IMG/VR virus record: IMGVR_UViG_3300025087_000641
Location: 41,405 to 105,404 of that record
Direction: 5' to 3' (one strand)
DNA length: 64,000 nucleotides
Source of the DNA: a virus
The notes under the pieces were generated by a model. That model saw only the letters and a list, made by a program, of their open reading frames with translations, ran no database searches and was not told the origin of the DNA. Numbering within the stretch: position 1 is the stretch's first letter; every line of letters starts with the position of its first letter. Shown in pieces: positions 8,743 to 64,000 of the stretch. The translations under genes and the position numbers were made by a program.

Positions 8743-9539
8743 TGACGATGGATTTATTGGCTTCTAATTTATTCTCCGTGGCGGGGAAGACAGCCCTTGT
8801 CACTGGGGCAAATGGTTATTTAGGACAAGTGGTGGCAGGAGTCCTTAAACAGAATGGTGCAAGTGTTATTGGGACTTATGCAACAAAAATCCCAACAGAT
8901 GGATTCTGTGATGAGTGGTATCTGATTGATTCAAATTCGCCATATCCAGACTTGGAAGAAAGATTGCGCGAAATTGAATCTAATAACCAAATAGATGTCC
9001 TTATCAACAACGCGCATCCCATGAAACGCGAGGCTGGATTCAATGTTGAGACAGACCAAATAGAACACTATTCACGGGCAGAATGGCAACAGAACATCAA
9101 TGGCGCTATTGGACTCCCGGCACTCACAACATCAATCATTGGGGCGGGGATGAAAGATAGAGGGCATGGTAGTATTATCAACATCAGTAGCATGTACGCC
9201 CTCGTTGCCCCCCATCCAAATTTGTACAAAGATACGCTATACATGAATCCGCCCGGATATGGGGCAAGCAAGGCGGCTCTACTTGAGTTTACTCGCTATG
9301 TGGCGGCATTCTGGGGACAGTATGGAGTGCGGTGTAATGCCCTGTGTCTTGGCCCATTCCCGAAATCAATTACACCAGAGATGCAAGAGTTCATCACGCG
9401 GTTGAACTCGCGCACTTGTCTTAATAGAACTGGCAGGGCAGGGGAGATAGCTGGAGCAATTCTATTTCTGGCGAGTGAGGCATCGTCATACATGACGGGC
9501 CATGCCCTAGTCCTCGATGCTGGATGGTGTGCCACATGA
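8742..9539 (+). CDS. SDR oxidoreductase (second paralogue)
   Basis: TGANGYLG, DVLINNA, YGASK, SSYMTGHALVLDAGW. Confidence 0.9.
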   Translation: MTMDLLASNLFSVAGKTALVTGANGYLGQVVAGVLKQNGASVIGTYATKIPTDGFCDEWYLIDSNSPYPDLEERLREIESNNQIDVLINNAHPMKREAGFNVETDQIEHYSRAEWQQNINGAIGLPALTTSIIGAGMKDRGHGSIINISSMYALVAPHPNLYKDTLYMNPPGYGASKAALLEFTRYVAAFWGQYGVRCNALCLGPFPKSITPEMQEFITRLNSRTCLNRTGRAGEIAGAILFLASEASSYMTGHALVLDAGWCAT

Positions 9540-13036: not shown

Positions 13037-13178
13037 TTGACACAATTGTTCTAATGTGGTACAAATGTACTGTCTAGACGGTTGCTAGTCGGGTGTGATA
13101 TAATGAATCGAGAAGTCTTGTGCAAGGCAATCGTCTAGACAACAATTGCCACCCGCACAAGGCTTTTTGTTTAAGGAG
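13037..13178 (+). promoter_or_regulatory. Tandem promoters plus leader hairpin upstream of the NUMOD4-HNH gene
   Basis: TTGACA(13037)...TGGTACAAA; TGATATAAT(13096-13104); hairpin AAGTCTTGTGC/GCACAAGGCTT followed by Ts; 15-nt inverted repeat 13071-13085/13127-13141. Confidence 0.65.
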
Positions 13179-13184
13179 TCCAAA

Positions 13185-13706
13185 ATGGAAGAAGAAATAT
13201 GGAAGGATATTCCAAATTTCCCGCACTATCAGATTAGCAATCTTGGGCGCGTTCGTTCGTTTTTCGTCAGGGGGCAAAAACAGAAACCATGTGATACTCC
13301 GAGAATACTTGTTCCTGTTCATCGTGGCAAGGGATATTATGCGGTAAATCTTCATCGTGGAGATGATATGATTATGGTTAATATCCACCAAGCTGTTCTT
13401 ACTGCATTTGTCGGCCAATGTCCAGATGGACTTGAGGCGTGCCACAATAACAGTGTTCGCAATGACAACAGGCTTGAGAATCTTAGATGGGATACCCGTT
13501 CCAGCAACTTTCTTGACAAACGCGCAAATGGAACATCTCGCTGTGGCGAGGAAAATAATAGGGCCAAACTTAATACTGCCCAAGTTCTCGAAATACGAGA
13601 GAGGGCATTTCAGGGAGAATCGTTTGGGGTTCTCTCCGGGGATTATGGGATAAGTAATATCCATGTAAAGAGAATTGTAGAACGGGTTGTGTGGCAACAT
13701 ATCTAG
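13185..13706 (+). CDS. NUMOD4-HNH homing endonuclease, antisense to the structural operon
   Basis: EEIWKDIP..PHYQISNLGRVRS (NUMOD4); HQAVLTAFVG..CHNNSVRNDNRLENLRW (HNH); RBS AAGGAG. Confidence 0.9.
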   Translation: MEEEIWKDIPNFPHYQISNLGRVRSFFVRGQKQKPCDTPRILVPVHRGKGYYAVNLHRGDDMIMVNIHQAVLTAFVGQCPDGLEACHNNSVRNDNRLENLRWDTRSSNFLDKRANGTSRCGEENNRAKLNTAQVLEIRERAFQGESFGVLSGDYGISNIHVKRIVERVVWQHI

Positions 13707-13708
13707 CC

Positions 13709-13942
13709 CTATTTCTCCTTACTCAATGCTTGCGTCTCATCGTCCAGCCTCGCAAGATACTTTTCGCATTTTTCTAGGTCTGCTTGGATAGCATCAAGCA
13801 CTGATTTGTCCGTCCCAATGCTCTTGCTCACCCGGTAGCGCATTTGAAGTTGCCAGCGAGTGTTGATATACATACTGACTTCTTGTGAGAGAAGCACCAG
13901 TTTGGTTTGGTTATCAGGCTCTAAATCAAGAATGTTCGACAC
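13709..13942 (-). CDS. Small helical hypothetical protein (tail-fibre associated)
   Basis: Overlaps the end of the tail-fibre gene. Confidence 0.55.
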   Translation of the reverse strand: MSNILDLEPDNQTKLVLLSQEVSMYINTRWQLQMRYRVSKSIGTDKSVLDAIQADLEKCEKYLARLDDETQALSKEK

Positions 13943-16106
13943 TTTCGAGACTCCTAATTCTTTTGTGAAGTTCGATTAGATGGGTAAAAATTTCTTCTAT
14001 CTTCTCTAATGCAATATCGGCTCGATCAAAAATGCCAGACGGCTCATCTGTTATTCTCGGAAGTCGCATGTTCTCTTTGATGTATGATTCTATCTCATCC
14101 AGCGATAGGCGCTGATAGCCTTCCGCCCCACGGTTTGTGGCGTATCTATTAATGTGATCGGTTAGCCAATATTCAAGTGCATAGTCTGGATTCCCATATG
14201 CAGAATTATTTAAGTAAATATTTGTCGCCACATTGATAGTGCCACTACCCTTATCTCCGCCAGTAGGTGCGCCCATCTGTAGCCCAGCACCAGTAATGAC
14301 ATTGGAGTTGCTTGTGGAAATGTACATGGCATAATTTGTACTCCCACCCGGATGCGTGCCGATTAGCAATCCGACATTGGCTGTAGCAATCGTTGCCTCA
14401 GCCATCACCAACGCGGCATAAGTGGAAATTGTCCCAGAACCACTTACACTTGGCACGCCAATATTGATACCCGCTACCGCCAATCCAGTAAATGCACCTT
14501 TGGCGTAGGTGACATTCAACTGCAATCCACGTAAGGCATCACTGTTTGCAATGGCGGTCAATATCGTGCTTTCGTACAATCCTAGCGCCTGCCCGCCCGC
14601 GGCTGTCACACTCTGCGCCAATTCAATGCCGACAGGTGCGACCGTAGCCGCAGTCCCCAATAGTACCCGTCCGGCTTGTATCCACAGCGCCAACGGATTT
14701 GTGATAGTGGCATTTGTCCCTGCCACCGGAGCGCCAGTAATTGCTACTGTTGCCGCCGTTGTAATTGTACTCGTTCCAGTAAAAGCATAGGTTGGGGGTT
14801 CAAATATTACTGCTCTCTGTGTGGTCACATCCCCAGAGAGCCATTGAACAGTTCTACTTAGTGCGAAATAAATATCTGTCGCCTCTCCATTTGCCGTCAG
14901 GCTGGTATGTGCCCCGCCCAAAACATAAATCAAATTTTGATGTGTCCCGGAAATTGCTGGTTGCGAGATGTATACGAATCTCGAACTAACCATTGGGACT
15001 CCGATTCCGAATGTACTTCCGTTGAATTGAAATGTCGAGTTTCCTGTTATTGCGGACGATGCACTCCAATAGGCAACATGATTTGCCGTTCCCGTGCCTG
15101 TTACAGTACCCGTGCCAGCCGTATTTCCGGGAATCCACCTGCCACTTGAAAATATAAGCACTTGGTCTGTAACAGCCCCAGTTGTGTCTACATCTGCCAA
15201 TCCATTTAGAGTGTTATCGCCACTATCAGATGCAGAGGCAGACCCCACCATCATCAGGTCTGGCGGATTACCAGACAGACCCTCTAGTTGTTTGATTCTG
15301 TCCAACAAATGTAATGCGGGAGGACTTGGAAACAGCCTCGCGTCTCTCATATTGTCCACCACAGAAGACCAATCAACAACGGTAGTGGTGGATGCAAGTT
15401 TTACATAGCCAAGTGGTATCTCGTTCCCTGCCGGTGCTGGTACTGGCGTGAATAGGTCGTAGATAATCTCTTGTGTTCCTGTGGCATATGGGACTCCGGG
15501 ACGATAAACAAGAATATCTGCCTCTGGGTCTAGCCCAATGAGAACATATCGAATCTGTCCACTCGATGGCTTGAATTGAGTCAAGTCATCGGTTTGCGTG
15601 AATGGGAATCTCTGCCATGTGTCCCAGAAGTAAATGAATGACCTCACATTGGCAATCATTGACGATGGATAGGTTGGATAGACCAATCCCGGAAGGAATT
15701 GGAGAGGGTCTATGAATACCTCGTCGCCCCCATGCCATTCATGTTGCTGGTGGTGTGGGCCTACTATTGGGATAGTGCTTGCTGGAATATCTCCAAGTCC
15801 AGCATAGTGCATACTGATAATCTGTTCTTCTTGGTCAGACTCCCCGGGTTCGGGGAAGCCAATAAGAACTGGAAGATTATGAGATGGTTGAACAACACCA
15901 CGATTTAGAATCTGGAAATATCGAGTGCTACTTACATCATCTCTGGCAAAAACGTAATTGTCACGATTGGGAACAAAGAGATTAGACGTGGCAGTACCGC
16001 GCCCGTCACCGAGTACAGCAGAGCGTATCTGTTGAACTTGTTGGTATTGGGAGATGGTCTCTCTCCATCTCCGCCTAGCCTCAGCAAGAGTTGTCACGAT
16101 GACCAA
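13926..16106 (-). CDS. Tail fibre/spike with C-terminal S74-like intramolecular chaperone
   Basis: Gly/Thr-rich beta repeats; LADVDTTGAVTDQVLIFSSGRW fibre motif; C-terminal PDY..LSLDEIESYIKENMRLP..LEKIEE..IELHKRI coiled coil. Confidence 0.72.
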   Translation of the reverse strand: MVIVTTLAEARRRWRETISQYQQVQQIRSAVLGDGRGTATSNLFVPNRDNYVFARDDVSSTRYFQILNRGVVQPSHNLPVLIGFPEPGESDQEEQIISMHYAGLGDIPASTIPIVGPHHQQHEWHGGDEVFIDPLQFLPGLVYPTYPSSMIANVRSFIYFWDTWQRFPFTQTDDLTQFKPSSGQIRYVLIGLDPEADILVYRPGVPYATGTQEIIYDLFTPVPAPAGNEIPLGYVKLASTTTVVDWSSVVDNMRDARLFPSPPALHLLDRIKQLEGLSGNPPDLMMVGSASASDSGDNTLNGLADVDTTGAVTDQVLIFSSGRWIPGNTAGTGTVTGTGTANHVAYWSASSAITGNSTFQFNGSTFGIGVPMVSSRFVYISQPAISGTHQNLIYVLGGAHTSLTANGEATDIYFALSRTVQWLSGDVTTQRAVIFEPPTYAFTGTSTITTAATVAITGAPVAGTNATITNPLALWIQAGRVLLGTAATVAPVGIELAQSVTAAGGQALGLYESTILTAIANSDALRGLQLNVTYAKGAFTGLAVAGINIGVPSVSGSGTISTYAALVMAEATIATANVGLLIGTHPGGSTNYAMYISTSNSNVITGAGLQMGAPTGGDKGSGTINVATNIYLNNSAYGNPDYALEYWLTDHINRYATNRGAEGYQRLSLDEIESYIKENMRLPRITDEPSGIFDRADIALEKIEEIFTHLIELHKRIRSLESVEHS

Positions 16107-19063
16107 TCCACTTCCATGCGTTTGAGAGCATAGTCATTAACTGTCCCGCCAATATTCCCAAACACATTCTCAAAGTCTCCAGTCTTGTTCTGGAATGTAC
16201 TTCCGCCATCAGACGAATATCGTGGCGAGTCTGTCCCATAAACAATATAGAGTCTGTTGTAATTGTTTATCCACGTTTTGACATGGTATCCAAGAGTCAA
16301 TCCGGGATTGACAAGCACCCAAGTTGCGCCACCGTCAATGGTCTTGAACACGCTTTTCTCGTCAGATACATAGATAGTATTACCGTCTCCAGTTATATCC
16401 TTTCTGTTACTTCCGGGCGGTGAACTCTTGCTATATCTACTTGGCGTAATATTGCTCCAACTCGCCCCCTGATTTTCGGTTTTGAATACGCCTGTGGTTG
16501 TAGATACATAGATGATTTGGTCGTTGTCATTCCCGGAATAGGGTAGATATAGACTCACTGCATATCCAGAGGCGGCAGGGAAAGACAGGGAACTCCAAGA
16601 ACCTCCCCCATTAGAACTCATGTAGACATATGCGGTAGTGGCTGTTGACGAATTGCTACCCAAGAAGAAGAGATTGGATATACTGTGGTTGCTGTAAACA
16701 ACCTCGCCCTGACTATTGTAACTAACTGCAATAGTCGCCCAACTCCAAGTAGAACCATTGTTGGAAGTTACACCTATTTGTGGCGCGGCGGCGTTGTCCT
16801 GAACAAGAAGTGCCCAATATCCGCTTGACGCAATACTTGGCGAAAGAATCGGGATGGTTGGACTGGCAAGCGTTCCGCCAAATCCTGCCTCAATTTGTGC
16901 GCCAGTCAATACCCTCGTCCATATCGGTGTTGTCTGATTCAGACTCGTTGTTTTCCAAATGTTGCCCTTTGTGGTTGCTATCCATGAGACAGTGCTTAGA
17001 TTGTATGGGTCAAACACCAAGTCCGTAAATGCTTCAGAACTAAAGGTGATGTTGTTTGTAATGTTCTTCCACGATGGATTACTTGCCAAGAAGTTAGTAG
17101 TTCTTGCAACAATATCATTTGACCCAGATGGTGCTTGTGCGATAAGTGCCGCAATCTTTCCAGCAGCCCCACCGGGATTAGGCTCTCCAGGGGTTGGAGG
17201 TGTAATCAGTGGGGGGAAGTCAACCGAAGACCCGCCATGCCCATCAACAACCGACTCTGCGGTTATGTCAATCTCTGGCAATGCAGAGATTGGATTGTAT
17301 GAAACCCTCATCTCGTATGGGACAAGACTCTGGTTGTTCCAATTTAGGCCACGCATATTTGTTGCACCAGTTGGAGAGAGTGACATTGTAATGCGACTCT
17401 GCGGAACTGGGTCTAGGCGTAGATTCCCGGAAAGAGGAATGTTGACTCTCTTGTATGGATTGTTCCTCTTGGCTCTTAGATTCCCGGCCCATGTGATTGC
17501 CGTGTCTGTATCTGGCGCTGTGGCATTACGGGATATTTCCTGCCTGCCTCCAAAGTGTCCCGCCCGATGACTTGGAGAGACACCACCGATTGGTGTATAG
17601 ACTCCGGCGCGAATAGCATAGATGGTCTGTTGGGAATTCTCGTCAAAGTGCGGATGTTCAAGTACAACTGCGCCTCGTCTATCCCCAGCACCAATGTCTG
17701 CAATAATCGGCAGTGAGGCGCTTGCCCCAGTAACGTGACTGTCCAGACTTGCATAAATTGAGGATTGCATGTCTGATGCCAGAAGCCCAAGAACACCCTC
17801 ATAGTTATAGCGCAATTGTTCCCACAAGTTCCCCTGTGGCAATGAACGAAATGCAAGTTCGAGAGATGATGCCGAATCTCCCGCAAAGTTGAAGTCGGTA
17901 ACATTCCCAATGGTAGACCGATATTTGACGAGGGTTAGTGCCGCCTTGTCTATTGTCAATTGGGATGCCATAGTCCACGCTGATGCTGCAGACCCACCCT
18001 CCAAGAATATGTCATAGGCGTCTGTCATTGCCAAGACTCTATCTATCGTTGCGACTCTGAATGACACATTTCCGGTGAATGGTTCTATGCGAGTGGAATC
18101 GTCAACAATCCACCCGACAAAGACAATGTTGTTCCTCCCAAATGAGTTTCCGCCAAGAGACGATGCAATCCCATTGTAAGATGCTTTCTCAAATATGACT
18201 ATCTGCGCACCTTCCGGGAAATTGTCGGAAGTAGCCCCGCTATAGGCTTGTATCCTGCCATCATATCCACCACTATTGAGTCCGCCAGCGATTTCCTCAA
18301 TCATTACTCGCTGGGGTTGTGCGTTACTTGAATTGAATGCGAATGTCAGACGTTGCCCGATATGACTTGCACCGTTGGAATCCGTGACGGTGAGTGTGTG
18401 GTATCTCCCGCCTGACGATGCATTGGTATAAGTAATGACAATCGGATTCTGGGACGAACCAAGTTGGCTTGAAACAGTCTGTCCATTGGGGAAACTCCAC
18501 GACTGAGACGTAATGGATACTGCCCCAGTAAACGAATAACTCCTATCCCCAACATAACTTGCCGTACCGACTCCGCTGTCAAGCCATACCACGGCAGGCG
18601 GGCCGAGTAATGCTAATGGCCCAAAATTCCTTGTTTGTGCTGTGTATGGGTCTAGGTCTACCCACCACGCAGATGTAGCAGTATCATATGAGGGATGAAC
18701 AGACCAAGGTGCATACTCCTCAACTATTGTTGCAATAGCACCATTCCATCTCGTGATGCCACTACCGTATTCTCCAACATGGAGTAGACTTGCAGATGTT
18801 GGGGTTGCCCTAATCCTCATTTTCCCCTTGTCATATTGCCCAACATTTGTTCCGATTCTAACTGTCATTCCTTTTCGAGCATCAGAGAGATTGCCCTGCA
18901 AAGTATTGCTTGCAGTAATGGCACTCGCGGGAAAGTTGTCGGGAATGGCATTGACAGACCCCGCCCAAATTATGCGCGGTTGGGCGACGGCACAGTAATA
19001 TTCACTGCGCTGTGGATGCGCCCTAAAAATAGCCTTTTCGTTAGTCGTCAGTGCTATTCTCAT
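16094..19063 (-). CDS. Baseplate hub/central tail protein with C-terminal Asp-box (BNR) beta-propeller
   Basis: Two genes after the tape measure; Pro-rich hinge PPTPGEPNPG then SNNGSTW, SSNGGGSW, TENQGASW, TIDGGATW, SSDGGSTF repeats. Confidence 0.72.
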   Translation of the reverse strand: MRIALTTNEKAIFRAHPQRSEYYCAVAQPRIIWAGSVNAIPDNFPASAITASNTLQGNLSDARKGMTVRIGTNVGQYDKGKMRIRATPTSASLLHVGEYGSGITRWNGAIATIVEEYAPWSVHPSYDTATSAWWVDLDPYTAQTRNFGPLALLGPPAVVWLDSGVGTASYVGDRSYSFTGAVSITSQSWSFPNGQTVSSQLGSSQNPIVITYTNASSGGRYHTLTVTDSNGASHIGQRLTFAFNSSNAQPQRVMIEEIAGGLNSGGYDGRIQAYSGATSDNFPEGAQIVIFEKASYNGIASSLGGNSFGRNNIVFVGWIVDDSTRIEPFTGNVSFRVATIDRVLAMTDAYDIFLEGGSAASAWTMASQLTIDKAALTLVKYRSTIGNVTDFNFAGDSASSLELAFRSLPQGNLWEQLRYNYEGVLGLLASDMQSSIYASLDSHVTGASASLPIIADIGAGDRRGAVVLEHPHFDENSQQTIYAIRAGVYTPIGGVSPSHRAGHFGGRQEISRNATAPDTDTAITWAGNLRAKRNNPYKRVNIPLSGNLRLDPVPQSRITMSLSPTGATNMRGLNWNNQSLVPYEMRVSYNPISALPEIDITAESVVDGHGGSSVDFPPLITPPTPGEPNPGGAAGKIAALIAQAPSGSNDIVARTTNFLASNPSWKNITNNITFSSEAFTDLVFDPYNLSTVSWIATTKGNIWKTTSLNQTTPIWTRVLTGAQIEAGFGGTLASPTIPILSPSIASSGYWALLVQDNAAAPQIGVTSNNGSTWSWATIAVSYNSQGEVVYSNHSISNLFFLGSNSSTATTAYVYMSSNGGGSWSSLSFPAASGYAVSLYLPYSGNDNDQIIYVSTTTGVFKTENQGASWSNITPSRYSKSSPPGSNRKDITGDGNTIYVSDEKSVFKTIDGGATWVLVNPGLTLGYHVKTWINNYNRLYIVYGTDSPRYSSDGGSTFQNKTGDFENVFGNIGGTVNDYALKRMEVDWSS

Positions 19064-19202
19064 ATAACCCTATCGCCAAAATCTCATGTATGGGCCGAAT
19101 CCCATCTCTCCGAATCAATCCCTATTCTTCGGAAAATTCTCTACGATACATATGGATACAACTTCTCAGACATGGATGACTACGACTTGTCAAGGCTTCG
19201 CC

Positions 19203-19538
19203 CTAAGTAACTGCAATGCCATTGATTAGAGCAGACCACCTGCCAACATATCCAGCCTCGAATGTTGGTCTGCCAATTTGCAAGAAGATTCCAGCGTTAG
19301 AATACGAAACGAAAGAGCCAGTATCTAGTGATAGCAATTGAATAGATGTCAGACTCGCACCATTGAATGCCGCCCATTGTTGATATGAGGCATAAGTACA
19401 AGCATCAAATTCAAGTCTTGCTGACTTCGTGGCGGCATAGACTGGCCTACCCGTGTGGTCAGTCCCGAGAACAATGTCCTGCCACGACTGTTGATATGGT
19501 GCAAGGCTGGCTGTTTGACCATTGATGGTGTATGGCAC
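19203..19538 (-). CDS. Distal-tail-like protein
   Basis: Immediately follows the tape measure; RBS AGGAG; GTG start. Confidence 0.55.
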   Translation of the reverse strand: MPYTINGQTASLAPYQQSWQDIVLGTDHTGRPVYAATKSARLEFDACTYASYQQWAAFNGASLTSIQLLSLDTGSFVSYSNAGIFLQIGRPTFEAGYVGRWSALINGIAVT

Positions 19539-19546
19539 AGTATCTC

Positions 19547-22111
19547 CTATATCGCAATCACATCCACAACAGCATTCAGGGCTGCGTTCCGAACGGCAGA
19601 GGCAAGTATGCCATCCCCCTGAACGTTTAGAGTTACCATGATATTAGACCCAGTTCCACCAGCCATTAGCATTGGCTCTTGACCACCACCAGGGCCAGGG
19701 GCGGGATATGGGTTGTCCCCCAAGTCTGGAATTGGGGCGGGCGGGCCAGGTTCTTCGCCATATGGAATGGGGGGTGGATTCCCGCTAGGAGTACCGCCCC
19801 CTCCAGATTCAAGGTCGCCATAATATTGATTGATACCCATTCTTTCTTGCCAATACCGAATTAGATTTGTAATGCGTTGCTGATATTCAAGACTCTCTCT
19901 GCCTGAAACATTTGTTAGGAACAATTCAATATTTGCTTCTTCTTGGCGACGATACGCCTCTTGTTCGCCAATCTGTTCCTGTAACGCCTGTTGCAAATCC
20001 CGCTTTCGTCTTTCGTCTGCCCGCCGTGCGTCCTCTACCTCGCGGTCATATTGTCTCTGGATTTCGCGGCGTCTATTATCATACTCGTCGGCAATATCCT
20101 TGAGCCTGTCCTGCTTCTGGCGCTCGGCATCTTCCTCTTTCTGCTTGCGGTCTGCCTCGGCGTCTTTAAGTTCCTCGTTGCGGGCTAGTTCGGCCTCAAA
20201 CAATGCGCGGGCATCAAGGTCAATAAGCGCCTGAATTCTTGAGCGGGCATATTTGTCAAGTATCTTTTGAATACGTCTCTGGTATGCGGACTCGGCATCC
20301 TCTGAGTCCTTGTGTCTCTTCTCCTCGGCATCAGAGATTGCTTTATCCCGATCCTTCTGCGATTTCTCCTCAAGATCAGCCAAATCCCTGTCGCGCTTTG
20401 TGGCAGCATCAATCATGTCATCGGCCAACTCGCGCTCAGAGTCGAGGACATCCTGTTTGTATTTGTCCCTAAGTTCTTGAATTTTCTTGTCAACTTTTTC
20501 CCAAAGTTCAAGAGTCTTCTGTGCGGCCTGTTCAAATGCTACAGGCTTGAAAGCATCCTGAAGTTCTTTGAGTGTGATAATGCCATCTTTGCCCGCCACT
20601 TCTAGGGCGTCTCTGAATTTGAATATTGCCTCATCTGCTAATCCGAAAGCAACCCTAAGTTTATCCAGTGCCTCTGGGGTTAGAGTCCCAGCCTTCTCGT
20701 TGAACTCTATAGCCTTCTTTGCGGCCTCTTCAAATCCAAAATCTAGTGTTTTCCCAGATATGTCGTTAAGTTTTTCAAGCGCCTCGGTTATTGCGTTCTC
20801 GCGTTGTTCTTGAAATGCCAGTTGTTCATTGAGGGCTTCAATTGCCTCGCGTCTGTCATCTGTAGCCCTTATTCCGTTATATTCAGATTCGGAAAGAAGA
20901 TAATTTGACTGAACTAATGTCTCTATAGTATCAGTCCCGTCAGACATTACACTTACAAGATCGCCACTACTGTTTACGGCCAAGTTTTGTGATTTTGCAA
21001 CCCGCTCCAATTCTGCGCGATATTCTCCATAGGTCTTGGAACTTTTAGACATCTCGCTGGCATGTGTTTTTATTGCCGCATTGATGTCTATGTATCCAAA
21101 TAGAAGAATGTCAAGGGACTTTATGAGTGGCGAAACAGCATCACCAATATGTGTCTTTATCGCATTTGTAGCATCTGTAATATGTGTCTCAAATCGCTCA
21201 TAGGCATTTGCGGCATCGTCAACCAATCCGCCAGTATCTTTCAGGAGTTTATTCCCATCCTCAATAATGGCGTTTGTTAGTGCCTGTCGCTTCTCTGCCT
21301 CGGTTAGATCATCTGCCACTTTGCCAATTGACTTCCCATAATTGGCGTAGGCGGTTTCTCCATCAATGACAATACCAATATCGTCAAGGACGCGGGTAGA
21401 CAGACGCCCAATACCGAGGATGATACGTTCAAATGCGGCTTCTGTGTCAAGTCCGGCAGCACGTCCACGAATGGCGGCAATCTCAAGCAACTTCGCCATT
21501 GTGTCGGTATCTCTCGCCACTCCGAGGAGCATAGATCGGTTTGCCTGTGTAATGGCTTCGTTGGCAGAGATAGCACCGTGCGAGGCGGTTTTCATCTTCG
21601 CCACCGCCTCTTCCATATCAACGCCGTAACTCTGTGCTAATTTAGTGCCTGTCTCCCGCAGGCGGTCAATGGCCGCGCCCTCTTTTCCGAAGTCGTATGC
21701 GGATTTTATGGCAACAGCAAACGCGGTAAGAATTCCAGTCGCAATTAGAGCGTCTTGGGCAAGAGCGGCAAATGATTTGCCAAATTCCTCATTCTGCTTG
21801 ATCGCCCCCTCCATGCCTCCTTTTGCCCCAATCGTGGAGAGACGCCCGAGGAATGTTCGTTGTATATCGTTGAACTTCTGTTGTTGGTCTGCTAATTCCT
21901 TTTGGAGGAGTATCTGCTGCTTGATGTTGGCTTGTGAATTCTTGAAAGCCTCTGTTTCAGAAGACCGAAGTAAGGCATTTCTATTACGGAGAGACTCGTA
22001 TTGGGCGCGATTCAGGGCCTCAACTGAGGCTTTCGCCTCATCAAGCACTTTTTTCCCCGCGAACATCGCGTTAATTAGAATCTTGATTTCGTCGGATGCG
22101 CCTGTTGGCAT
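19547..22111 (-). CDS. Tape measure protein
   Basis: Long Ala-rich helical protein; GIGRLSTRVLDDIGI motif; charged coiled coil; follows the chaperones. Confidence 0.88.
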   Translation of the reverse strand: MPTGASDEIKILINAMFAGKKVLDEAKASVEALNRAQYESLRNRNALLRSSETEAFKNSQANIKQQILLQKELADQQQKFNDIQRTFLGRLSTIGAKGGMEGAIKQNEEFGKSFAALAQDALIATGILTAFAVAIKSAYDFGKEGAAIDRLRETGTKLAQSYGVDMEEAVAKMKTASHGAISANEAITQANRSMLLGVARDTDTMAKLLEIAAIRGRAAGLDTEAAFERIILGIGRLSTRVLDDIGIVIDGETAYANYGKSIGKVADDLTEAEKRQALTNAIIEDGNKLLKDTGGLVDDAANAYERFETHITDATNAIKTHIGDAVSPLIKSLDILLFGYIDINAAIKTHASEMSKSSKTYGEYRAELERVAKSQNLAVNSSGDLVSVMSDGTDTIETLVQSNYLLSESEYNGIRATDDRREAIEALNEQLAFQEQRENAITEALEKLNDISGKTLDFGFEEAAKKAIEFNEKAGTLTPEALDKLRVAFGLADEAIFKFRDALEVAGKDGIITLKELQDAFKPVAFEQAAQKTLELWEKVDKKIQELRDKYKQDVLDSERELADDMIDAATKRDRDLADLEEKSQKDRDKAISDAEEKRHKDSEDAESAYQRRIQKILDKYARSRIQALIDLDARALFEAELARNEELKDAEADRKQKEEDAERQKQDRLKDIADEYDNRRREIQRQYDREVEDARRADERRKRDLQQALQEQIGEQEAYRRQEEANIELFLTNVSGRESLEYQQRITNLIRYWQERMGINQYYGDLESGGGGTPSGNPPPIPYGEEPGPPAPIPDLGDNPYPAPGPGGGQEPMLMAGGTGSNIMVTLNVQGDGILASAVRNAALNAVVDVIAI

Positions 22112-22112
22112 A

Positions 22113-22448
22113 TTACTCTTTTGGCCTTTGCGGTAACTGGACTCTTACTTCAAGCGGATTGTTAGTCTTTGTTTCCCCGCCTTTTGCCCACCGCAATAGA
22201 CTTACCCCATTAGGATTGTTCTTTTCCCAATCACGCTTATTCTTGGCGTCGTGTTTGCCCTTTGCTGTATGATATACATTAAGGCATGTCCGAATATCCC
22301 TGACAACTCGTGGGTCTTGTGTGTCAAATCCAAGTTCGGATGGTGACATTCTAAGATGTTCGCAAATCAATCCGGCCTCAAGCAGTCGTGGCGGGGGGCA
22401 ACGACTCGGACTATCCACATAGTCTATTACCCCCCTTGCGAGTTTGGG
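22113..22448 (-). CDS. Tail assembly chaperone GT extension (reached by -1 frameshift)
   Basis: -1 frame from CCCAAAC reads KLARGVIDYVDSPSRCPPPRLL... open to 22113. Confidence 0.75.
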   Translation of the reverse strand, partial: PKLARGVIDYVDSPSRCPPPRLLEAGLICEHLRMSPSELGFDTQDPRVVRDIRTCLNVYHTAKGKHDAKNKRDWEKNNPNGVSLLRWAKGGETKTNNPLEVRVQLPQRPKE

Positions 22449-22762
22449 TCAGAGGCGTTGGTCTTTTCGTAGAGGTCGGTGATGCACTCCACAAGCCACG
22501 CCACAAGTTTTGGTGACGCCGGGAAAGTCTCGTAAGTCACGGGATTCGGAAGTCCAGAAATATCCCACAGTTTTACAAGCGGAATAGCAGCAGGCAGAAG
22601 TGCGGCATAGAACTCGTAAAGAGAGTCTGTTGACTCTTTGAGTTTCGTTGCCACCGATAGTGCTTTCTCCCATGCTACCAAAGCGGGAAACGAGAGATAG
22701 TCATTGTGGAAGGTTATCTTTCCCCTCCACCTATCAACATCACATGGATATTCAAGAGGCAT
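22427..22762 (-). CDS. Tail assembly chaperone G
   Basis: Upstream of the tape measure; ends DPNSQGG* with an in-frame slippery heptamer. Confidence 0.78.
   Translation of the reverse strand: MPLEYPCDVDRWRGKITFHNDYLSFPALVAWEKALSVATKLKESTDSLYEFYAALLPAAIPLVKLWDISGLPNPVTYETFPASPKLVAWLVECITDLYEKTNASDPNSQGG
22442..22448 (-). other. Programmed -1 frameshift site C CCA AAC
   Basis: X XXY YYZ heptamer in the correct phase (GAC CCA AAC), four codons before the stop. Confidence 0.82.
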
Positions 22763-22790
22763 TTGTCATCTTCTTTCTGTGGTGTTCGCC

Positions 22791-22952
22791 ACAAACAAAA
22801 ACGGGCAACGGCAGTCTTTTCGACTATTTTCCGTTGCCCGCGCTAAAGGCCGAGTCTATTATTCAGTTCCCATAAAAGTACCCAAGATAATGATAAGTGT
22901 GGACTATTTATGGGTTACATAACATTTTATACAAGTTTTCACAAAAGTCAAG
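22791..22952 (-). promoter_or_regulatory. Internal promoter and leader hairpin upstream of the chaperone gene
   Basis: Minus strand TTGACT-N16-TAAAAT; 10-bp stem CGGGCAACGG/CCGTTGCCCG (22802-22840) followed by TTTTTGTTT. Confidence 0.6.
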
Positions 22953-23301
22953 GGGAGATTTCAACCACTCCCGAAATTGTAATTTGTGTCGCAGACTTGC
23001 ACTTTCGGCACACAAACTCCATGTCTCCAGAGTCGTCTACAATCGTGTAAGGCAGGGCTAAATCACATATCCTCGCCAAACAGTCAAGATTCGAGCAACG
23101 GATAGGCTCTGGGGCGATTGGGGCGACGTAACGGGGCAATTTCACCCTGTAACTGACAATTGCCTCGTGGTGTATTGCTTTTGAGCACCGCTGGCACTTT
23201 ACGGACAGGTCTGGGGCATTTCCCTGCATAACCTGACACTCATGCCTGCTTTTGAATAGGAGGGCATTGCAGGTGTGGCGGACATCATTTCTGAAGACCA
23301 T
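22948..23301 (-). CDS. Tandem zinc-ribbon protein, Com-like
   Basis: HTCNALLF..VKCQRC and RCSNLDC..FVCRKCK. Confidence 0.55.
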   Translation of the reverse strand: MVFRNDVRHTCNALLFKSRHECQVMQGNAPDLSVKCQRCSKAIHHEAIVSYRVKLPRYVAPIAPEPIRCSNLDCLARICDLALPYTIVDDSGDMEFVCRKCKSATQITISGVVEISP

Positions 23302-23302
23302 T

Positions 23303-24385
23303 CTAATGCGTCAGTAGTCTAAGCCAGACAGACCAAATCCCAAGAAGGTCTGTAGTATCATCAAATGGAAGGGTCAGCATTACAAATGTTCCGGGGTTGT
23401 CATATTGTGCCCTAGTTCCAGACTCTAGGCGTGTGCCATATTTCAGATACAACAAAACGTGGTACTCCCACGGATTTGCCCCATACTTCTCTATAATCTC
23501 ATTGCGCTCATATTCATGTCCCGCCCAAAAGCGGTCACTCTTGCGTGAGGCCCGTTCATCAGATTCGGAGCGTAGAAACAGGTTGGCAAACAGATCATAT
23601 GCCCACACATCTTCGCGCAGTCTTGAGCGAAGTGACAGACGAGATAGATTTTCAAGCTCATACCAGAATGTTTTACACGCCAATTCGTCGCCGTAATTGC
23701 ACATTGCAGCTAATACTTCAAGCGTTGCAGCGCTGGTGTTACTTTCTAGTATCGCGGATTTCTCTCTCCATGTTTCTCCGTCTTGGGGATTTAGAAAGTT
23801 TCCCCCCTGAATATGAACCATTTCGTGGACGAAAACCTCAAGTATGTCTCGGCTGTCTTGCCATGCCGGATCATCAAAGTAGCGTGCATTTATCCAGACG
23901 ACACACATATTCCTACCAACGCTTGGGTCATACTCACAATTGGCACGTCCGCCAACCTGAAACGATGTATCCCCATCCCACGGACGAACAACAATGTAAT
24001 CTGGATATATGCCCTCTCCAACACGCTCTCTAAGATAATACGGAATAATGCGGGTTGCATAATCAACAAGCCATTTGCTGTTGGTATATATTCCCCAAGT
24101 CTCTTCTTGGTCATAGAATTGACTCCGGTTGTAATCTGCTACAACTGGAACTGGCTCACCCGCCTTCTGGTGTGCCACAACTGCTATCACTGCATCTCTG
24201 GCGATTTGAGGTATTTGTGTATTGTGCCATGCCCACACCTCAGTACCTACAGACCCCAATGATACAACAGTCACCACAAGAACAAGAATGCCCATCTTGA
24301 TTTGTGGCCTGAATTTTCGCCAGCCAGTTACTATTGGCTTCTTTGCTATTCGTTTCTTTGTGGTGGACTTTCTTTTTGCGGGCAT
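23303..24385 (-). CDS. Membrane-anchored HExxH zinc metalloprotease-like protein
   Basis: Basic N-terminus, TM GILVLVVTVVSLGSV, VFVHEMVHIQ, downstream E in LESNT. Confidence 0.62.
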   Translation of the reverse strand: MPAKRKSTTKKRIAKKPIVTGWRKFRPQIKMGILVLVVTVVSLGSVGTEVWAWHNTQIPQIARDAVIAVVAHQKAGEPVPVVADYNRSQFYDQEETWGIYTNSKWLVDYATRIIPYYLRERVGEGIYPDYIVVRPWDGDTSFQVGGRANCEYDPSVGRNMCVVWINARYFDDPAWQDSRDILEVFVHEMVHIQGGNFLNPQDGETWREKSAILESNTSAATLEVLAAMCNYGDELACKTFWYELENLSRLSLRSRLREDVWAYDLFANLFLRSESDERASRKSDRFWAGHEYERNEIIEKYGANPWEYHVLLYLKYGTRLESGTRAQYDNPGTFVMLTLPFDDTTDLLGIWSVWLRLLTH

Positions 24386-24435
24386 ATCATACTCCCCCTA
24401 AAAGGGTGATTTATATATTTGATTCTACCACGCCA

Positions 24436-24569
24436 TTGACACTATGTAAAGGTATGGTACAATTTGGTTGTCACCCACTATGCAAGATGGTATAATGTCT
24501 TTGCGACTCCTCTGCCACAAGCCTTGCGCTAGTGGGTGACACAGAGGAGTTGCTTTTATTTTCAGGAGT
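24436..24569 (+). promoter_or_regulatory. Tandem promoters plus terminator-like leader upstream of the DUF559 endonuclease
   Basis: TTGACA-N16-TACAAT (24436-24463); TTGTCA-N17-TATAAT (24468-24496); stem 24503-24514/24542-24553 followed by TTTTATTTT. Confidence 0.7.
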
Positions 24570-24573
24570 CATT

Positions 24574-25356
24574 ATGGCTAAAAGTTCTTTGGGTAAAAAG
24601 CGCGGTATTCACACTTGCAATGTGTGTGGCGTAAAATTTAAGAGATGGTGTGATGCGCCAATACTCTTGATATGTGAGGACTGTTATTTAATAACTATAC
24701 CATGTGAACAATGTGGAGAACCTGCAAGGAAATATACAAAAGTTGCTAGGCCAAGAAGATTCTGTGACAGCAAGTGCAGGCAGACATATATTGCTAGAAA
24801 GACAGCACAAACTAGGGGCGAAACAACAAGGCAAAAACACAAAACAGACCAAGTTTACCACGAAAAGATGTCTGCAATTTTAAGGTCTGTTCATCATCTT
24901 TCACAAACGAAAGAGAATTTTGAGGCAATATCTAAAAGTCTCAAGAAGAGATGGAAAAATAAAGATTATAGGGAATATATGTCGGCAATGTCGCGTCGGA
25001 TTTGGGAAGACAGGGATAAAATGCTGAATTCCGTAAAGTGGCATCCAACTAAAATGACAAATCTAGAAAGGAAAATTGATGAAATTATATCGGAATGGGG
25101 AATTACATATCACTTAAATTATATGGTCGGGAGATACTTTATAGATTTTGCATTCCCAGAACATATGATTGGCATAGAATGTGATGGGGAATATTGGCAT
25201 CGTAACACAAGGGAAAGAGAAGCCAAGCGTGATGCTTGGCTCTCATCTTGTGGTTGGACAATTATTAGACTCTCTGAAAACGAGATTGAAAATTGTCCCG
25301 TTTGGACACTTGCCACAAAGGTGGTTCCCCTTATAGAGAATTGTTCTAATCCCTAG
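24574..25356 (+). CDS. Zn-finger plus DUF559/Vsr-like endonuclease, antisense
   Basis: CxxC repeats; YFIDFAFPEHMIGIECDGEYWH, RDAWL..GWTIIRL. Confidence 0.85.
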   Translation: MAKSSLGKKRGIHTCNVCGVKFKRWCDAPILLICEDCYLITIPCEQCGEPARKYTKVARPRRFCDSKCRQTYIARKTAQTRGETTRQKHKTDQVYHEKMSAILRSVHHLSQTKENFEAISKSLKKRWKNKDYREYMSAMSRRIWEDRDKMLNSVKWHPTKMTNLERKIDEIISEWGITYHLNYMVGRYFIDFAFPEHMIGIECDGEYWHRNTREREAKRDAWLSSCGWTIIRLSENEIENCPVWTLATKVVPLIENCSNP

Positions 25357-26735
25357 AGTACCCCCGTGCCCAGACTCCTCCCCGGAACTCCACTAAGCAA
25401 CTGGAAACTGAATGGAAAGTTATCATTTCTAACAACTCGGTAATTCCCAGTCAGAACCCATGCACCATTGCTATCAGCAACACTCACATTTTCAATATAG
25501 GCAGGCACGGAAGCACTCAATTGCATATTGGAAGCACCGATTCGCCAGGGTGTAGAATATAACCAATGCATCTGAATCTCGCTGGCGTTCTTCCACTTCT
25601 GATACTCAAGTTCATTGTTTAACAGAAGGGTAATGTTGCCAGTATATTCAGTTGCACCGAAGAATGAACCCTGTGGGCCTTGCACGCCAGCAGCGGCACG
25701 ATAGTTGCGGTTGCCAGTTGAGATAGTCATGTCGCCGTTCTGCATCACATCCCACTGAGTCCCGTTGTCGCGTCTCACGCGCAATCCCCACGCGGGCCAG
25801 ATGCGAAGTGGGGATGGAGAATGGAGAGTCGTTTCCGCACTAGACCCAGTTGGTTCGCCCTCAAAGTCAGCGGTTACATTGAAGATACCATCAACTGCCT
25901 CGGAGTCGGCAGTAAGAGTTAGACTCTTTAGAACCATCCCCGTATGCATAAAGGAGAGGTTGGCAGATGCCTCGCCAGCAGTCGGGTTATTGAGTCTCTC
26001 GAATGCGAGAGTTGGCGCTGAGGAGTTGACCGTAAAAGTGTGCAACCAGTGTTTGATTGCAGAGACACTGACAACGCCCGTAGATGCTCCAGAGATAGAG
26101 ATACCAGAGGCCGCGATAGAAGACCATGCAGTTCTGGTATAGGCAACTACTGATTGGGCAGACCCAAACGAGATTTGTTCACTCGCGCCATTACCATACG
26201 AGTCGATGCCACTGATGGAGATAGTACCAGCGGGAATACCACCCGACAGTTGGATTTGTAGAATCTTTCCGCCCGATTCTGGTTGATTGTTGAGAACAAG
26301 GGCTTTTGGGTCTGCGTTTAGAGGTTCATTTCCCCGCAGAAGTTGTGGCGCTGATGCTTGCGGAATCATGTCCGTAGAAGCACCACCCATCGCCGCATAC
26401 AGAAGTACACCCAAGAAGTCGGGGATGACGGGTGCAGAGAATCCGCCCTCTGACCAAGTACGTCCCTGCACTGGCGGTTGCTGATTGATGCGCCTATCGC
26501 CTGCATGTCCAGCGGGAAAGATAGTTGCTCGTTGTTCTTGCAGGGAGGGCAAGTCATCGGTAATCATGTTGTGCCACATGCCCCCCTCCCACCATGCCTT
26601 TCCGAGGTGGGCCGCAAGTCCAGTGGCGTAAGCACCCGCACTCGGCGCAACACCACGATTCCACGCTGGTGTGGCGGCCTGATTCACCTCAACAGAAATT
26701 TTGAGTCCCTGATTAAAAGTTGAACTGATTGCCAT
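25353..26735 (-). CDS. Major tail tube protein with inserted beta domain
   Basis: Follows the tail terminator; HTFT..PTLAFER..G.VLKSLTLT..FNVTADFEG pattern of siphoviral tubes. Confidence 0.72.
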   Translation of the reverse strand: MAISSTFNQGLKISVEVNQAATPAWNRGVAPSAGAYATGLAAHLGKAWWEGGMWHNMITDDLPSLQEQRATIFPAGHAGDRRINQQPPVQGRTWSEGGFSAPVIPDFLGVLLYAAMGGASTDMIPQASAPQLLRGNEPLNADPKALVLNNQPESGGKILQIQLSGGIPAGTISISGIDSYGNGASEQISFGSAQSVVAYTRTAWSSIAASGISISGASTGVVSVSAIKHWLHTFTVNSSAPTLAFERLNNPTAGEASANLSFMHTGMVLKSLTLTADSEAVDGIFNVTADFEGEPTGSSAETTLHSPSPLRIWPAWGLRVRRDNGTQWDVMQNGDMTISTGNRNYRAAAGVQGPQGSFFGATEYTGNITLLLNNELEYQKWKNASEIQMHWLYSTPWRIGASNMQLSASVPAYIENVSVADSNGAWVLTGNYRVVRNDNFPFSFQLLSGVPGRSLGTGVL

Positions 26736-26808
26736 TTTTATCTCCCCGAATATCTTTACTCTATCACAAGATATTCAGAATGCAACACGAGTTTTGTTAA
26801 AAGAACAC

Positions 26809-26942
26809 TTGTACTATATCCCATTATATGGTAAAATTTGCTTGCTGAGGTAAGCCATAATACGGTATAATAGAATTCATCAATCGCCTGCATCGGCTTG
26901 CCTCAGCAACAAGACCGTATCGCGGGCGATTGTATTTGGAGG
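26809..26942 (+). promoter_or_regulatory. Tandem promoters plus leader hairpin upstream of the NUMOD3-HNH gene
   Basis: TTGTAC-N17-TAAAAT; TTGCTG-N18-TATAAT; stem 26881-26891/26922-26932 next to RBS GGAGG. Confidence 0.65.
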
Positions 26943-26946
26943 TTGT

Positions 26947-27930
26947 ATGCCAAGAAAAGGCCAGAAGATTACCAAAGAACATAGCCAAGCTATTGCCGAT
27001 GCTAATAGGCGTAGAATTTTCACCCCAGAAATGCGTGGGAATTACAGTAAAGCACAACAGGGCAAAACCCTTTCCGATGAGCATAAGAAGAAACTCAGCG
27101 ACTCTCTTTCTGGAGACAGAAATCCATTTTTTGGAAGAACACATAGCGAGGAGACTCGCAGAAAAATATCCGAGGGGAATAAGGGCAAGGTCGGCTACAA
27201 TCTTGGGAAACATCTCTCTGACAAAACGAAAGAAAAACTTAGACGGGTTCATCTTGGTAAGCCAAGTCCCATGAGGGGAAAGCGGATGTCGGAAGAATCT
27301 AGGGAGAAAATGAGAATGGCTTGGGGCAATCGGCGTATGCGTATGGCTGAGGCAAAGGATATTAGAAAGCGCCAAAGAATGAAAGATGCTTGGAAGTCCA
27401 GAAAGGATAAAATTGGCGGGAATGGAGTTCATCCCGAAACAAGGGAAAAGTTGAGCATCAGTAGAATGGGAACTGGCAATTCTTTTTACGGAAAGAAACA
27501 TTCCCCTGAAACAATAGAAAAAATGACAGGCCCAAACAATAGCCAGTGGAAGGGGGGACACGAAAGATATTATGGCCCGGAATGGACTAAAACACTGAGG
27601 GCAAAAATAAGAAGGCGTGATGGATACAAATGTATGATTAATCCATCCCATCTCATTTCTGGTCATTTTGGCGTTCCAGATGTTCATCACATTATTCCAT
27701 ATTTTGACGCTATTGATGCACAACTAGAGCGTCCACACCGTCACGAAAATCTTATATCGCTCTGTAGAAAATGTCATCGTCGGGCAGAGGCACACCCAAA
27801 TGTCTCTGTGCCACAACTCCAATCATTGCTTATTGAAAGATATAGTTATCAAAGGGAAAATATGTTATCTATGCCGATATACATTCAAACTGAAAAATCC
27901 ACCCAATCATGTCCGTGCCCGCAAATGTGA
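26947..27930 (+). CDS. NUMOD3-repeat HNH homing endonuclease, antisense
   Basis: Repeated HSEETRRKIS-like/NPFFG motifs; WKGG; RRRDGYKC; DVHHIIP..NLISLCRKCH. Confidence 0.9.
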   Translation: MPRKGQKITKEHSQAIADANRRRIFTPEMRGNYSKAQQGKTLSDEHKKKLSDSLSGDRNPFFGRTHSEETRRKISEGNKGKVGYNLGKHLSDKTKEKLRRVHLGKPSPMRGKRMSEESREKMRMAWGNRRMRMAEAKDIRKRQRMKDAWKSRKDKIGGNGVHPETREKLSISRMGTGNSFYGKKHSPETIEKMTGPNNSQWKGGHERYYGPEWTKTLRAKIRRRDGYKCMINPSHLISGHFGVPDVHHIIPYFDAIDAQLERPHRHENLISLCRKCHRRAEAHPNVSVPQLQSLLIERYSYQRENMLSMPIYIQTEKSTQSCPCPQM

Positions 27931-35571: not shown

Positions 35572-36003
35572 TTAGAGCATGAAAATTCTGCTTGCCCCTG
35601 CCGACCATTGAACCGTGATGTCACCACCGTTGGGCGAGGCCGGAATCCCGGTTGCCGTGTCAATCCACCCAATGAGCCTAGCTGTGCTTGGTGATCCAGT
35701 GTCCTGATAGATAACAATAGCACCAATGGCTGAGTTGGCTACAGCAGATACGGCAGATGCAGTATGGTCGTCAGCATCAGCGACTCCAGATGCAACGGTC
35801 TTGCCACCCAATGCAGTTTCCGACATCCGTATTCTTGCGGAGTCTGGAATCTGAGTCAGGAATGTAATGTCAGTTACCGCATTATATCCGTTAGTGCCCC
35901 CAGCCCCTCTTGAGATGAAGACAAGTCTTATCGTGTCCGTATCCCAATCCAGAGTCCCGTCCAAGAAACCTTGTCTACCCGACATAAATAAGGTATTTGC
36001 CAT
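35572..36003 (-). CDS. Conserved phage structural protein
   Basis: DWDTDTI..GVADADD..IVIYQDTG..LIGWID..PNGGDITVQW motif set seen in many phage structural modules. Confidence 0.7.
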   Translation of the reverse strand: MANTLFMSGRQGFLDGTLDWDTDTIRLVFISRGAGGTNGYNAVTDITFLTQIPDSARIRMSETALGGKTVASGVADADDHTASAVSAVANSAIGAIVIYQDTGSPSTARLIGWIDTATGIPASPNGGDITVQWSAGASRIFML

Positions 36004-36038
36004 TGACTTTTACCTCGCTAGATGGTACAATAGACTTT

Positions 36039-36584
36039 ATGAAAAAGAAAAGATGCGCTGGAATCTGCAAAATGGATTTGCCACTTTCTGAATTCCACAA
36101 GAACAGGGCAAGACATGATGGGCTTGATACTCGTTGTAAGTCCTGTAGTAGAAAACGTCGAGTTATTGTTTACCATCAGAATCCGGAGAAAGAAAAAAAG
36201 AAATCTGATGATTACCGTCGTTCCCATCTTGAACAATATCGCAAGTATTCTAGGAAAAGATACAAAACAGATAAATGGCAAGAGTACATGCGTAAATATG
36301 TGGCACAATGGCTTAAGACTGATAAGGGCAAAAAGAGCAATCGGGCCAAGCGCCGTCGCCGTCGTGAAAAAGAATGTTCGGCAAGTGGGCAATGCACAGA
36401 TATACAACTCCAGGCCCGCATTAATTATTATGGGGGGAGATGCTGGATATGTGAAAAGCCCTATGAAGCTATTGACCATGTAAAACCAATCTCTAAAGGT
36501 GGAGCGGGTTATCCTGTAAATCTTCGGCCAATTTGTAGAAGTTGTAATTCAAAGAAGGGTGACACTTGGCCGTTTTCTCCATGA
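36039..36584 (+). CDS. HNH endonuclease, antisense; probably leaderless
   Basis: KRC..C..LPLSEFHKN..C; CWIC..IDHVKPISKGG..NLRPICRSCNSKKG; promoter TTGACT-N17-TACAAT (36003-36031) ends 7 nt before the ATG. Confidence 0.88.
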   Translation: MKKKRCAGICKMDLPLSEFHKNRARHDGLDTRCKSCSRKRRVIVYHQNPEKEKKKSDDYRRSHLEQYRKYSRKRYKTDKWQEYMRKYVAQWLKTDKGKKSNRAKRRRRREKECSASGQCTDIQLQARINYYGGRCWICEKPYEAIDHVKPISKGGAGYPVNLRPICRSCNSKKGDTWPFSP

Positions 36585-52788: not shown

Positions 52789-53302
52789 CGGTTGGGGTAA
52801 GTTCCTTGAATTCCCCCTCTATGAGTTCTTCTTGTGGTGCTTCTATCATCTTCGCCACTTCGGAGTAAAGTTCTTTTGGCAATGCCTCTTCTAGTGCCTC
52901 TTGTGTAATCTCGCCACGCCGAAGCATTCCGAGGGCAACCACTCTCCAGTCTTTGTCGTAATTGTGAATCTCCTTGCGCTCACTCCACCTGTCTGGGAAA
53001 CGACGCGCAAGGAACTTGAGTCCTATCTCCGCGTCATCCATTGATTTGGCGCGGATGTTTTCAACTATCTCAACTTCACAGGCAGCCTCCGCCTCCCGAA
53101 TTTGGTCAATGAATGCAATGAGTTCGGGGGGCGGAGGTTCTGGATTGAGTCTATCCTTGTATTCTGCCCACTTCACCCATTTTGCATAGGTGGAGGGATG
53201 AATACCAACCGCACGGCAAGCCACTCTGATGTGGTTGCCGTTGCGGATGAATTCCAGCAGAGTAGATTGTGTTTTTGGGTCTGCCCAGAGAGGTTCAATC
53301 AC
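52751..53302 (-). CDS. Terminase small subunit-like protein
   Basis: IRNGN...ACRAVGIHPSTY..W HTH; LARRFPDRW; overlaps terL. Confidence 0.75.
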   Translation of the reverse strand: MIEPLWADPKTQSTLLEFIRNGNHIRVACRAVGIHPSTYAKWVKWAEYKDRLNPEPPPPELIAFIDQIREAEAACEVEIVENIRAKSMDDAEIGLKFLARRFPDRWSERKEIHNYDKDWRVVALGMLRRGEITQEALEEALPKELYSEVAKMIEAPQEELIEGEFKELTPTDVGATTEQSNTG

Positions 53303-63916: not shown

Positions 63917-64000
63917 GTCTATCCGAGAACTAGTGGCTTTTGCCAGAAGATGCAACAGATCGCCACAGAAGCGACAAGACCCACTAGTTCTCGGATAGAC
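63917..64000. repeat. Perfect 20-bp inverted repeat
   Basis: GTCTATCCGAGAACTAGTGG (63917-63936) / CCACTAGTTCTCGGATAGAC (63981-64000); may extend beyond the window. Confidence 0.85.

Follow-up and report, generated by a model that had tools for sequence, protein, structure and literature searches.

What controls three unrelated endonuclease genes that face the tail genes of an uncultured phage, and what is the function of the elaborate leader that all three share? The genes lie in a window of 64,000 nucleotides (nt), bases 41405-105404 of the 105-kb IMG/VR record IMGVR_UViG_3300025087_000641, for which completeness is estimated at 85%; the whole case is one genome, analyzed by computation only. 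Positions below are those of the window unless the record is named. From 12418 to ~55000, the window carries a structural block on the − strand that includes genes for the tape measure, tail tube, head-tail adaptor, and tail spike, and five nuclease genes are embedded in this block on the + strand, antisense among the tail genes. The leaders at issue precede three of them, here called elements 1, 2, and 3 (el1, el2, and el3): a NUMOD4 and HNH_3 endonuclease gene (el1, 13185..13706), a DUF559/MTES_1575 (Vsr-like) endonuclease gene (el2, 24574..25356), and a gene for an HNH endonuclease with four NUMOD3 motifs (el3, 26947..27930). According to the original prediction, which was made from the sequence of the window, each of these genes is preceded by a promoter P1, a second promoter P2, and then a long hairpin next to the ribosome-binding site (RBS), and the nucleases themselves are unrelated. 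The coordinates and sequences check out, and BLASTP comparison confirms that the three proteins are mutually unrelated. The pattern is real and highly non-random. The reading that we favor, with as much doubt as conviction, is that the leaders are promoter-choice transcription attenuators, in which the RNA made from P2 possibly also feeds back in trans. On this model, the leader probably throttles nuclease production.

The three genes are candidate free-standing homing endonuclease genes: their nuclease domains are confirmed, they lie antisense between tail genes, and the guanine-cytosine (GC) content of the three regions is below that of the flanks. The leaders span 138-148 nt from the −35 hexamer of P1 to the ATG, and they share one order of parts: a sigma70-like P1, a sigma70-like P2, a long GC-stemmed hairpin, a U-rich stretch, a strong Shine-Dalgarno sequence (SD), and the ATG. 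They align nearly gap-free, with the functional landmarks as the common columns (z 4.3-6.2 versus shuffles).

Promoters were predicted by sigma70-type hexamers with 16-18 bp spacing, and transcription was assumed to start 7 nt past each −10 hexamer; all six promoters are on the + strand. In el1, P1 is TTGACA-17-TACAAA with a TG extension (13037..13065, predicted start ~13072), and P2 is an extended −10 promoter, TGaTATAAT (13096..13104), with a predicted start at ~13111, the hairpin base. Both promoters of el2 are near-consensus, with TTGACA-16-TACAAT and a TG for P1 (24436..24463, predicted start ~24470) and TTGTCA-17-TATAAT and a TG for P2 (24468..24496), predicted to start at ~24503 on the first base of the hairpin. 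For el3, P1 was read from the sequence as TTGTAC-17-TAAAAT with a TG (26809..26837, predicted start ~26844), and P2 is TTGCTG-18-TATAAT (26842..26871, predicted start ~26878). The −10 of P2 is a perfect TATAAT in every leader, P1 and P2 are separated by 33-39 bp, and the predicted P2 starts fall 0-3 nt before the hairpin base. On inspection, the P1 and P2 of el2, and likewise those of el3, are as similar as tandem duplicates. When the sigma70-consensus sites of the 105-kb genome are ranked, four of the best seven stand at nuclease genes; these are el1 P1, el2 P1, el2 P2, and the promoter of a fourth nuclease gene at 36039.

Most of the phage's own genes have no sigma70-consensus site. A fifth member of the top seven is a − strand promoter at 24422-24450 (TTTACA-17-TAGAAT with a TG), which stands back-to-back with el2 P1, points into the downstream late gene 23303-24385, and may compensate for the insertion.

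The feature that ties promoters and hairpin together is a long complementarity between them. In all three elements, the segment that doubles as the −35 region and spacer of P2 (arm A) can pair with a segment inside the hairpin (arm A'), and the predicted P1 starts are the first two or three bases of arm A. In el1, the predicted P1 transcript has arm A (13071..13085) at its 5' end; this arm overlaps the −35 region of P2 and pairs with 13127-41 by 14 Watson-Crick pairs and one G.U. In el2, arm A (24469..24486) holds the P2 −35 hexamer TTGTCA and pairs with 24523-41 by 12 bp, a one-base bulge, and a further 6 bp that include one U.G, whereas arm A of el3 (26842..26856) starts with the P2 −35 hexamer TTGCTG and pairs with 26895-909 by 14 Watson-Crick pairs and one U.G. 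The claim that sequences differ between elements while the architecture is kept is borne out, since the three arms are wholly different and the pairing is the same. Alignment of the leaders with MAFFT leaves the arms out of column register, and shuffle tests were used instead. For these, the region from one −10 hexamer to the other was compared with the 75-80 nt past P2, and the best antiparallel match was scored. The A:A' score is 12-13.5, compared with a shuffle mean of 5.4-5.8, and for each element none of 5000 dinucleotide shuffles reaches the observed value. The arms have no further copy anywhere in the genome or flanks, and any trans effect would thus be cassette-specific.

Second, interleaved pairs that do not nest with A:A' had also been proposed for two of the leaders, and both are present. 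The one in el3 is significant (arm B, ATACGGT, 26860..26866, complementary to 26914-26920; p about 4e-4), and the one in el1 is marginal (arm B, CGGGTG, 13090..13095, complementary to 13150-13155; p about 0.05); el2 has no B:B' pair. These pairs are unexplained by a nested model. In the nested fold of el1, the segment just past A, which is arm B, also pairs with the 5' arm of the terminator-like stem. The wobbles in A:A' of el1 and el3 had been taken as a sign of RNA pairing on the + transcript. They are there, but the argument from them is weak: the + strand and the − strand are predicted to fold with similar energies, the el1 P1 fold being the exception, and the asymmetry between G.U and A.C is too weak to decide the strand.

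A side observation concerns the same segment of the leaders. In el1 (13103-13138) and el2 (24495-24539), the −10 of P2 reads TATAATG, and its ATG opens reading frames of 11 and 14 codons that are present on P1 transcripts only, span the 5' half of the hairpin into A', and have no SD; el3 has ATA in place of this ATG.

How unusual is this arrangement? As a natural control, we used tandem promoters of the same type from IMG/VR, of which 79 were analyzable, and a single site reaches the A:A' score. This site (L168, 6755-6845) precedes a small gene and contains a perfect 15-nt palindrome that brackets the second −10. It lacks a hairpin, resembles a classic operator, and is unrelated to the leader architecture, which none of the 79 control sites has. 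The 105-kb genome contains nine inverted repeats this strong with loops of 20-75 nt, and three of the nine are the leaders described here. When the full architecture was required (A:A' plus an interleaved GC stem with its 3' arm after A', followed by a T-rich tail), exactly three instances were found in the genome, all on the + strand and all at el1-el3, and 1.12 Mb of other phage loci yielded one doubtful AT-rich match. A search of IMG/VR with the family-specific promoter pattern gave one match (L183), which is unrelated. Elsewhere in the window, strong inverted repeats occur at 53084-53139 (17-nt GC-rich arms, 22-nt loop) and at 63917-64000 (28-nt arms), the latter reaching the contig end.

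The hairpins have the anatomy of intrinsic terminators, with a GC stem and an immediate U-rich tract. That of el1 (13110..13172) has its stem at 13117-23 with 13155-61, a U-tail at 13164-72, and the SD at 13173-78. In el2 (24503..24562), a 12-bp stem (24503-14 with 24542-53) is followed by a U-tail at 24554-62 and the SD at 24563-68, and in el3 (26881..26937), the stem (26881-91 with 26922-32) leads into a U-rich tail at 26930-37 and the SD at 26938-42. All three are on the + strand and enclose A', and the stems given are the outer ones. Overall, the stems comprise 8-12 bp with 5-7 G-C pairs, and the tails directly past them are TTTTGTTT, TTTTATTT, and TTGTATTT, with T contents of 7/8, 7/8, and 6/8. 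For RNAs that start at P2, the hairpin is the sole fold predicted (−24 to −29 kcal/mol, z −2.7 to −4.1). The distance to the SD is 1-5 nt from the U-tail and 5-11 nt from the hairpin stem, and minimum-energy folding of the P2 RNAs leaves the SD unpaired; because it is outside the hairpin, the RBS mask of I-TevI and other T4 genes, which had been suggested as an analog, does not apply. On the − strand, no T-run follows the hairpins when the sequence is read in that direction, so late transcription would pass through.

RNAs that start at P1 are predicted to fold differently. We folded nascent P1 RNA ending at the 3' arm of the terminator, which represents the moment of the termination decision. 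At this point A:A' is the minimum-energy structure, with a probability of 0.97-0.998, and the probability of the terminator is ≤0.03. In a growth series, A:A' is the minimum-energy fold of all three elements from the synthesis of A' until past the U-run. Constraint folding and the growth series thus give the two mutually exclusive folds of an attenuator, the antiterminator forming first. The A:A' and terminator helices cross, with 0-13 nt between A' and the terminator 3' arm, a geometry from which we infer that they could not coexist as a simple pseudoknot.

Together with the recurrence of one layout and one spacing in three leaders before unrelated genes, these folds argue for an attenuator that may work as follows. 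Transcripts from P2 would start at the hairpin base, fold only into the terminator, and mostly end as an RNA of ~60 nt; a short hairpin RNA from P2 had been predicted, and the anatomy of promoter, hairpin, and U-tail fits it. Transcripts from P1 would instead start with arm A, which would pair with A' once A' has been made. This helix of 15-18 bp would be topologically incompatible with the terminator stem, and RNA polymerase would therefore read on to produce a nuclease mRNA with a free SD. Such refolding and read-through of P1 transcripts had also been proposed, and the folds at the decision point predict it. Because P1 and P2 are so close together, they would be expected to exclude each other and to compete for polymerase. 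P2 would then be a sink that diverts polymerase into a dead-end product, so that nuclease expression would be kept low, which would suit a gene facing a late tail-gene operon. Further, since the P2 RNA carries A', it may pair with arm A while a P1 transcript is still being made and so bring termination back, and each cassette would have its own feedback.

Several observations weigh against this reading. Some of the promoters are poor matches: the −10 of el1 P1 (TACAAA) is missing its last T, and neither el3 promoter is perfect, both having weak −35 hexamers. The loops enclosed by the stems, at 26-36 nt, are large for intrinsic terminators, and el3 has a weak tail. Folded at full length, the leaders come close to bistability, with an A:A' probability of 0.18-0.57. 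Translation enhancers, too, can take the form of a U-rich stretch before an SD, and the 5'-terminal stem with which each of the two RNA isoforms begins would suit a role in mRNA stability equally well. No homologous leaders were found among GenBank phages, IMG/VR, JGI, and GTDB, where the matches are at most about 40% identical and their leaders unrelated. Finally, two further + strand nuclease genes of the same late block are without the leader, which is thus not universal.

The first of these two genes (36039-36584, endonuclease VII/HNH-like) has neither a hairpin nor a second promoter upstream. Its site (36003-36584) includes a single promoter, TTGACT-17-TACAAT with a TG, and since only 7 nt separate the end of its −10 from the ATG, a leaderless mRNA is expected. 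The second (47826-48809) lies between − strand genes and encodes a DUF559-like protein of 327 amino acids with zinc-finger repeats; no tandem promoters, hairpin, or clear SD were found upstream of it. Its DUF559-like domain is 28% identical to that of the gene at 24574.

The search for relatives covered GenBank phages (megablast and tblastn), IMG/VR (scanned with each nuclease, the tail tube, and a protein alignment), JGI metagenomes, and GTDB genomes. Among GenBank phages, the leader region has no megablast match and the tail-tube protein no tblastn match, and the phage has no near relative there. ENA assemblies contain protein relatives of the DUF559 nuclease at 79%, 71%, and 64% identity. 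Several distant NUMOD4-HNH genes of unrelated IMG/VR phages have a long hairpin and a U-run a few bases before the ATG; these leaders have no second-layer complement. They belong to loci L009-L014 and L017 (upstream of 1501, or 1108/1476), and L011 and L013 have a common conserved leader behind a Bacteroidetes-type promoter motif.

A different use of the same parts is that the main function is small-RNA feedback in trans, in the style of CI of phage P4 or C4 of phage P1. The loop of the terminated P2 RNA would pair with arm A (and B) of the P1 transcripts that its own cassette makes, forcing termination or otherwise silencing them, and A:A' would matter mainly between molecules. P2, hairpin, and U-tail resemble a small-RNA gene, each cassette has arms of its own, and in el1 and el3 the apical loop contains 9-10 nt of A'. 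A duplex of P2 RNA with arm A is favored by −3.9 to −6.3 kcal/mol after the cost of opening the hairpin, and the interleaved B:B' pairs suit two-site binding better than they suit a simple nested fold. P4 CI acts in this way: it is a same-strand small RNA that is complementary to nearby sequence of the same transcript and causes premature termination (PMC4825925). The C4 and CI RNAs had been suggested as analogs; membership of the leaders in that family is not supported. P4 CI (seqA/seqB/seqC) and P1/P7 C4 (RF01695) resemble the leaders in using a same-strand RNA for element-specific, immunity-like control, and the A' segment of the predicted P2 RNA can pair with arm A, with which P1 transcripts would begin. 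The leaders have no sequence or structure match to C4. The comparison with C4-type Rfam models that had been proposed as a check gave no match on any leader, no Rfam family matching the three leaders at E up to 10 or the whole window at the gathering score. The only Rfam matches were sub-threshold models of microRNA precursors, which merely reflect long hairpins. CI and C4 also differ in that they are processed from a longer transcript, without a promoter of their own, and control lysogeny genes rather than nucleases. In addition, the energy gained in trans is modest, el2 exposes seeds of only 5-6 nt and lacks B:B', and pairing within one molecule is kinetically favored and already accounts for the anatomy. 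We therefore regard trans feedback as the main function as unlikely. The further suggestion of a nuclease-bound RNA is unsupported.

Another possibility is that the structures set the fate of the mRNA, with 5'-terminal stems that block 5'-end-dependent decay or serve RNase III and a U-rich stretch that enhances translation. Both predicted starts are within 0-3 nt of a stem, and long leader hairpins that lack a terminator tail occur elsewhere in the genome (for example, at record 8841-8931 and 16393-16494). A hairpin just upstream of a free RBS is also known from seg43(25) (PMC2988022). This explanation is doubtful, given that it does not say why the partner of arm A should be the interior of the P2 hairpin and not some other segment, or why 6-7 U in 8 nt directly follow all three GC stems. 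Both of these other hairpins lie upstream of the window. The one at record 8841-8931 has 26-nt arms with many + strand G.U pairs and stands before an RBS. At record 16326-16500, the hairpin has 32-nt arms and stands behind a TTGACA-16-TACAAT promoter; the SD is within its 3' arm, just before the ATG at 16495. The sequence CGCCACA occurs in several loops of these upstream, early-region leader hairpins.

A function of A and A' as DNA, whether as operator half-sites for the nuclease or a repressor, as inversion sites around P2, or as relics of a mobile element, is highly improbable. In its favor, every arm A overlaps the −35 region and spacer of P2, and I-TevI is known to repress its own promoter (PMC2988022). 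Yet the spacing of 38-49 bp between the half-sites is more than a dimer could span and less than looping or inversion would require, and this geometry rules out an inversion switch. A palindromic site of one and the same geometry would also have to serve each of three proteins that are not related to one another. Every imperfect pair is a G.U on the transcribed strand, the arms coincide with predicted 5' ends of transcripts, and the lack of other arm copies in the genome or flanks counts against both an operator and a homing site. As for chance or a functionless by-product of promoter duplication, the tandem-duplicated look of P1 and P2 in el2 and el3 gives it next to no footing, because the shuffles, natural controls, and genome-wide scans make chance negligible and duplication yields direct rather than inverted repeats.

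We return to the attenuator and its closest known counterparts. In the attenuation of plasmid rep genes (pT181, pIP501, and pAMbeta1), pairing of an upstream pre-emptor prevents formation of a terminator just before the RBS, and an antisense RNA that binds the pre-emptor restores termination, so that the regulator senses copy number. The logic of this system is the closest to that proposed here, where the leader likewise has a pre-emptor (arm A) and a terminator before the RBS. The difference lies in the regulator. No counter-transcript unit was seen on the opposite strand of the leaders, and the candidate regulator would come from the same strand and a second tandem promoter, would itself be the terminated hairpin, and would not be indispensable, as promoter use alone could make the choice.

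The T-even phages offer a second comparison. In the leaders of I-TevI, I-TevII, I-TevIII, segB, and mobE of Aeh1, a hairpin hides the RBS in long transcripts and a nested late promoter frees it; terminators are found inside mobE and segF, and I-TevI is subject to autorepression (PMC2988022). These systems are alike in placing two promoters, with differing 5' ends and structures, before a homing-endonuclease gene, which limits nuclease expression. In T4, however, the outer transcript has the masked RBS and the inner one is translated, whereas here the productive transcript is predicted to be the outer one. Further, the SD is never in the hairpin here, the hairpin has a U-tail, and the promoters are of the host sigma70 type and not late promoters. 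A terminated short isoform and a read-through long isoform from one locus are known for IsrK of the Gifsy-1 prophage, where the short RNA acts on the long one (PMC4825925). The leaders are predicted to make the same two kinds of isoform. IsrK has one promoter and a short RNA that activates translation, whereas the leaders have two promoters and are predicted to act on termination.

Homing endonucleases need to be expressed enough to spread and not so much as to harm their carrier. To our knowledge, the controls described for them come almost entirely from T-even phages and consist of RBS masks, internal terminators, and autorepression. If our reading is correct, a promoter-choice attenuator with element-specific arms would be a new control logic for homing endonucleases, and the control module would travel or evolve separately from the nuclease gene. 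At ~140 nt each, the leaders would also be compact, orthogonal sets of promoter, terminator, and antiterminator parts. More speculatively, they may be portable, barcoded self-regulation cassettes, in which the product of P2 is an anti-antiterminator for the P1 transcripts of the same cassette only and the nuclease is shut off as genome copies and the small RNA accumulate. Such a cassette would be a same-strand analog of plasmid copy-control attenuation, and we know of no description of one for homing endonucleases.

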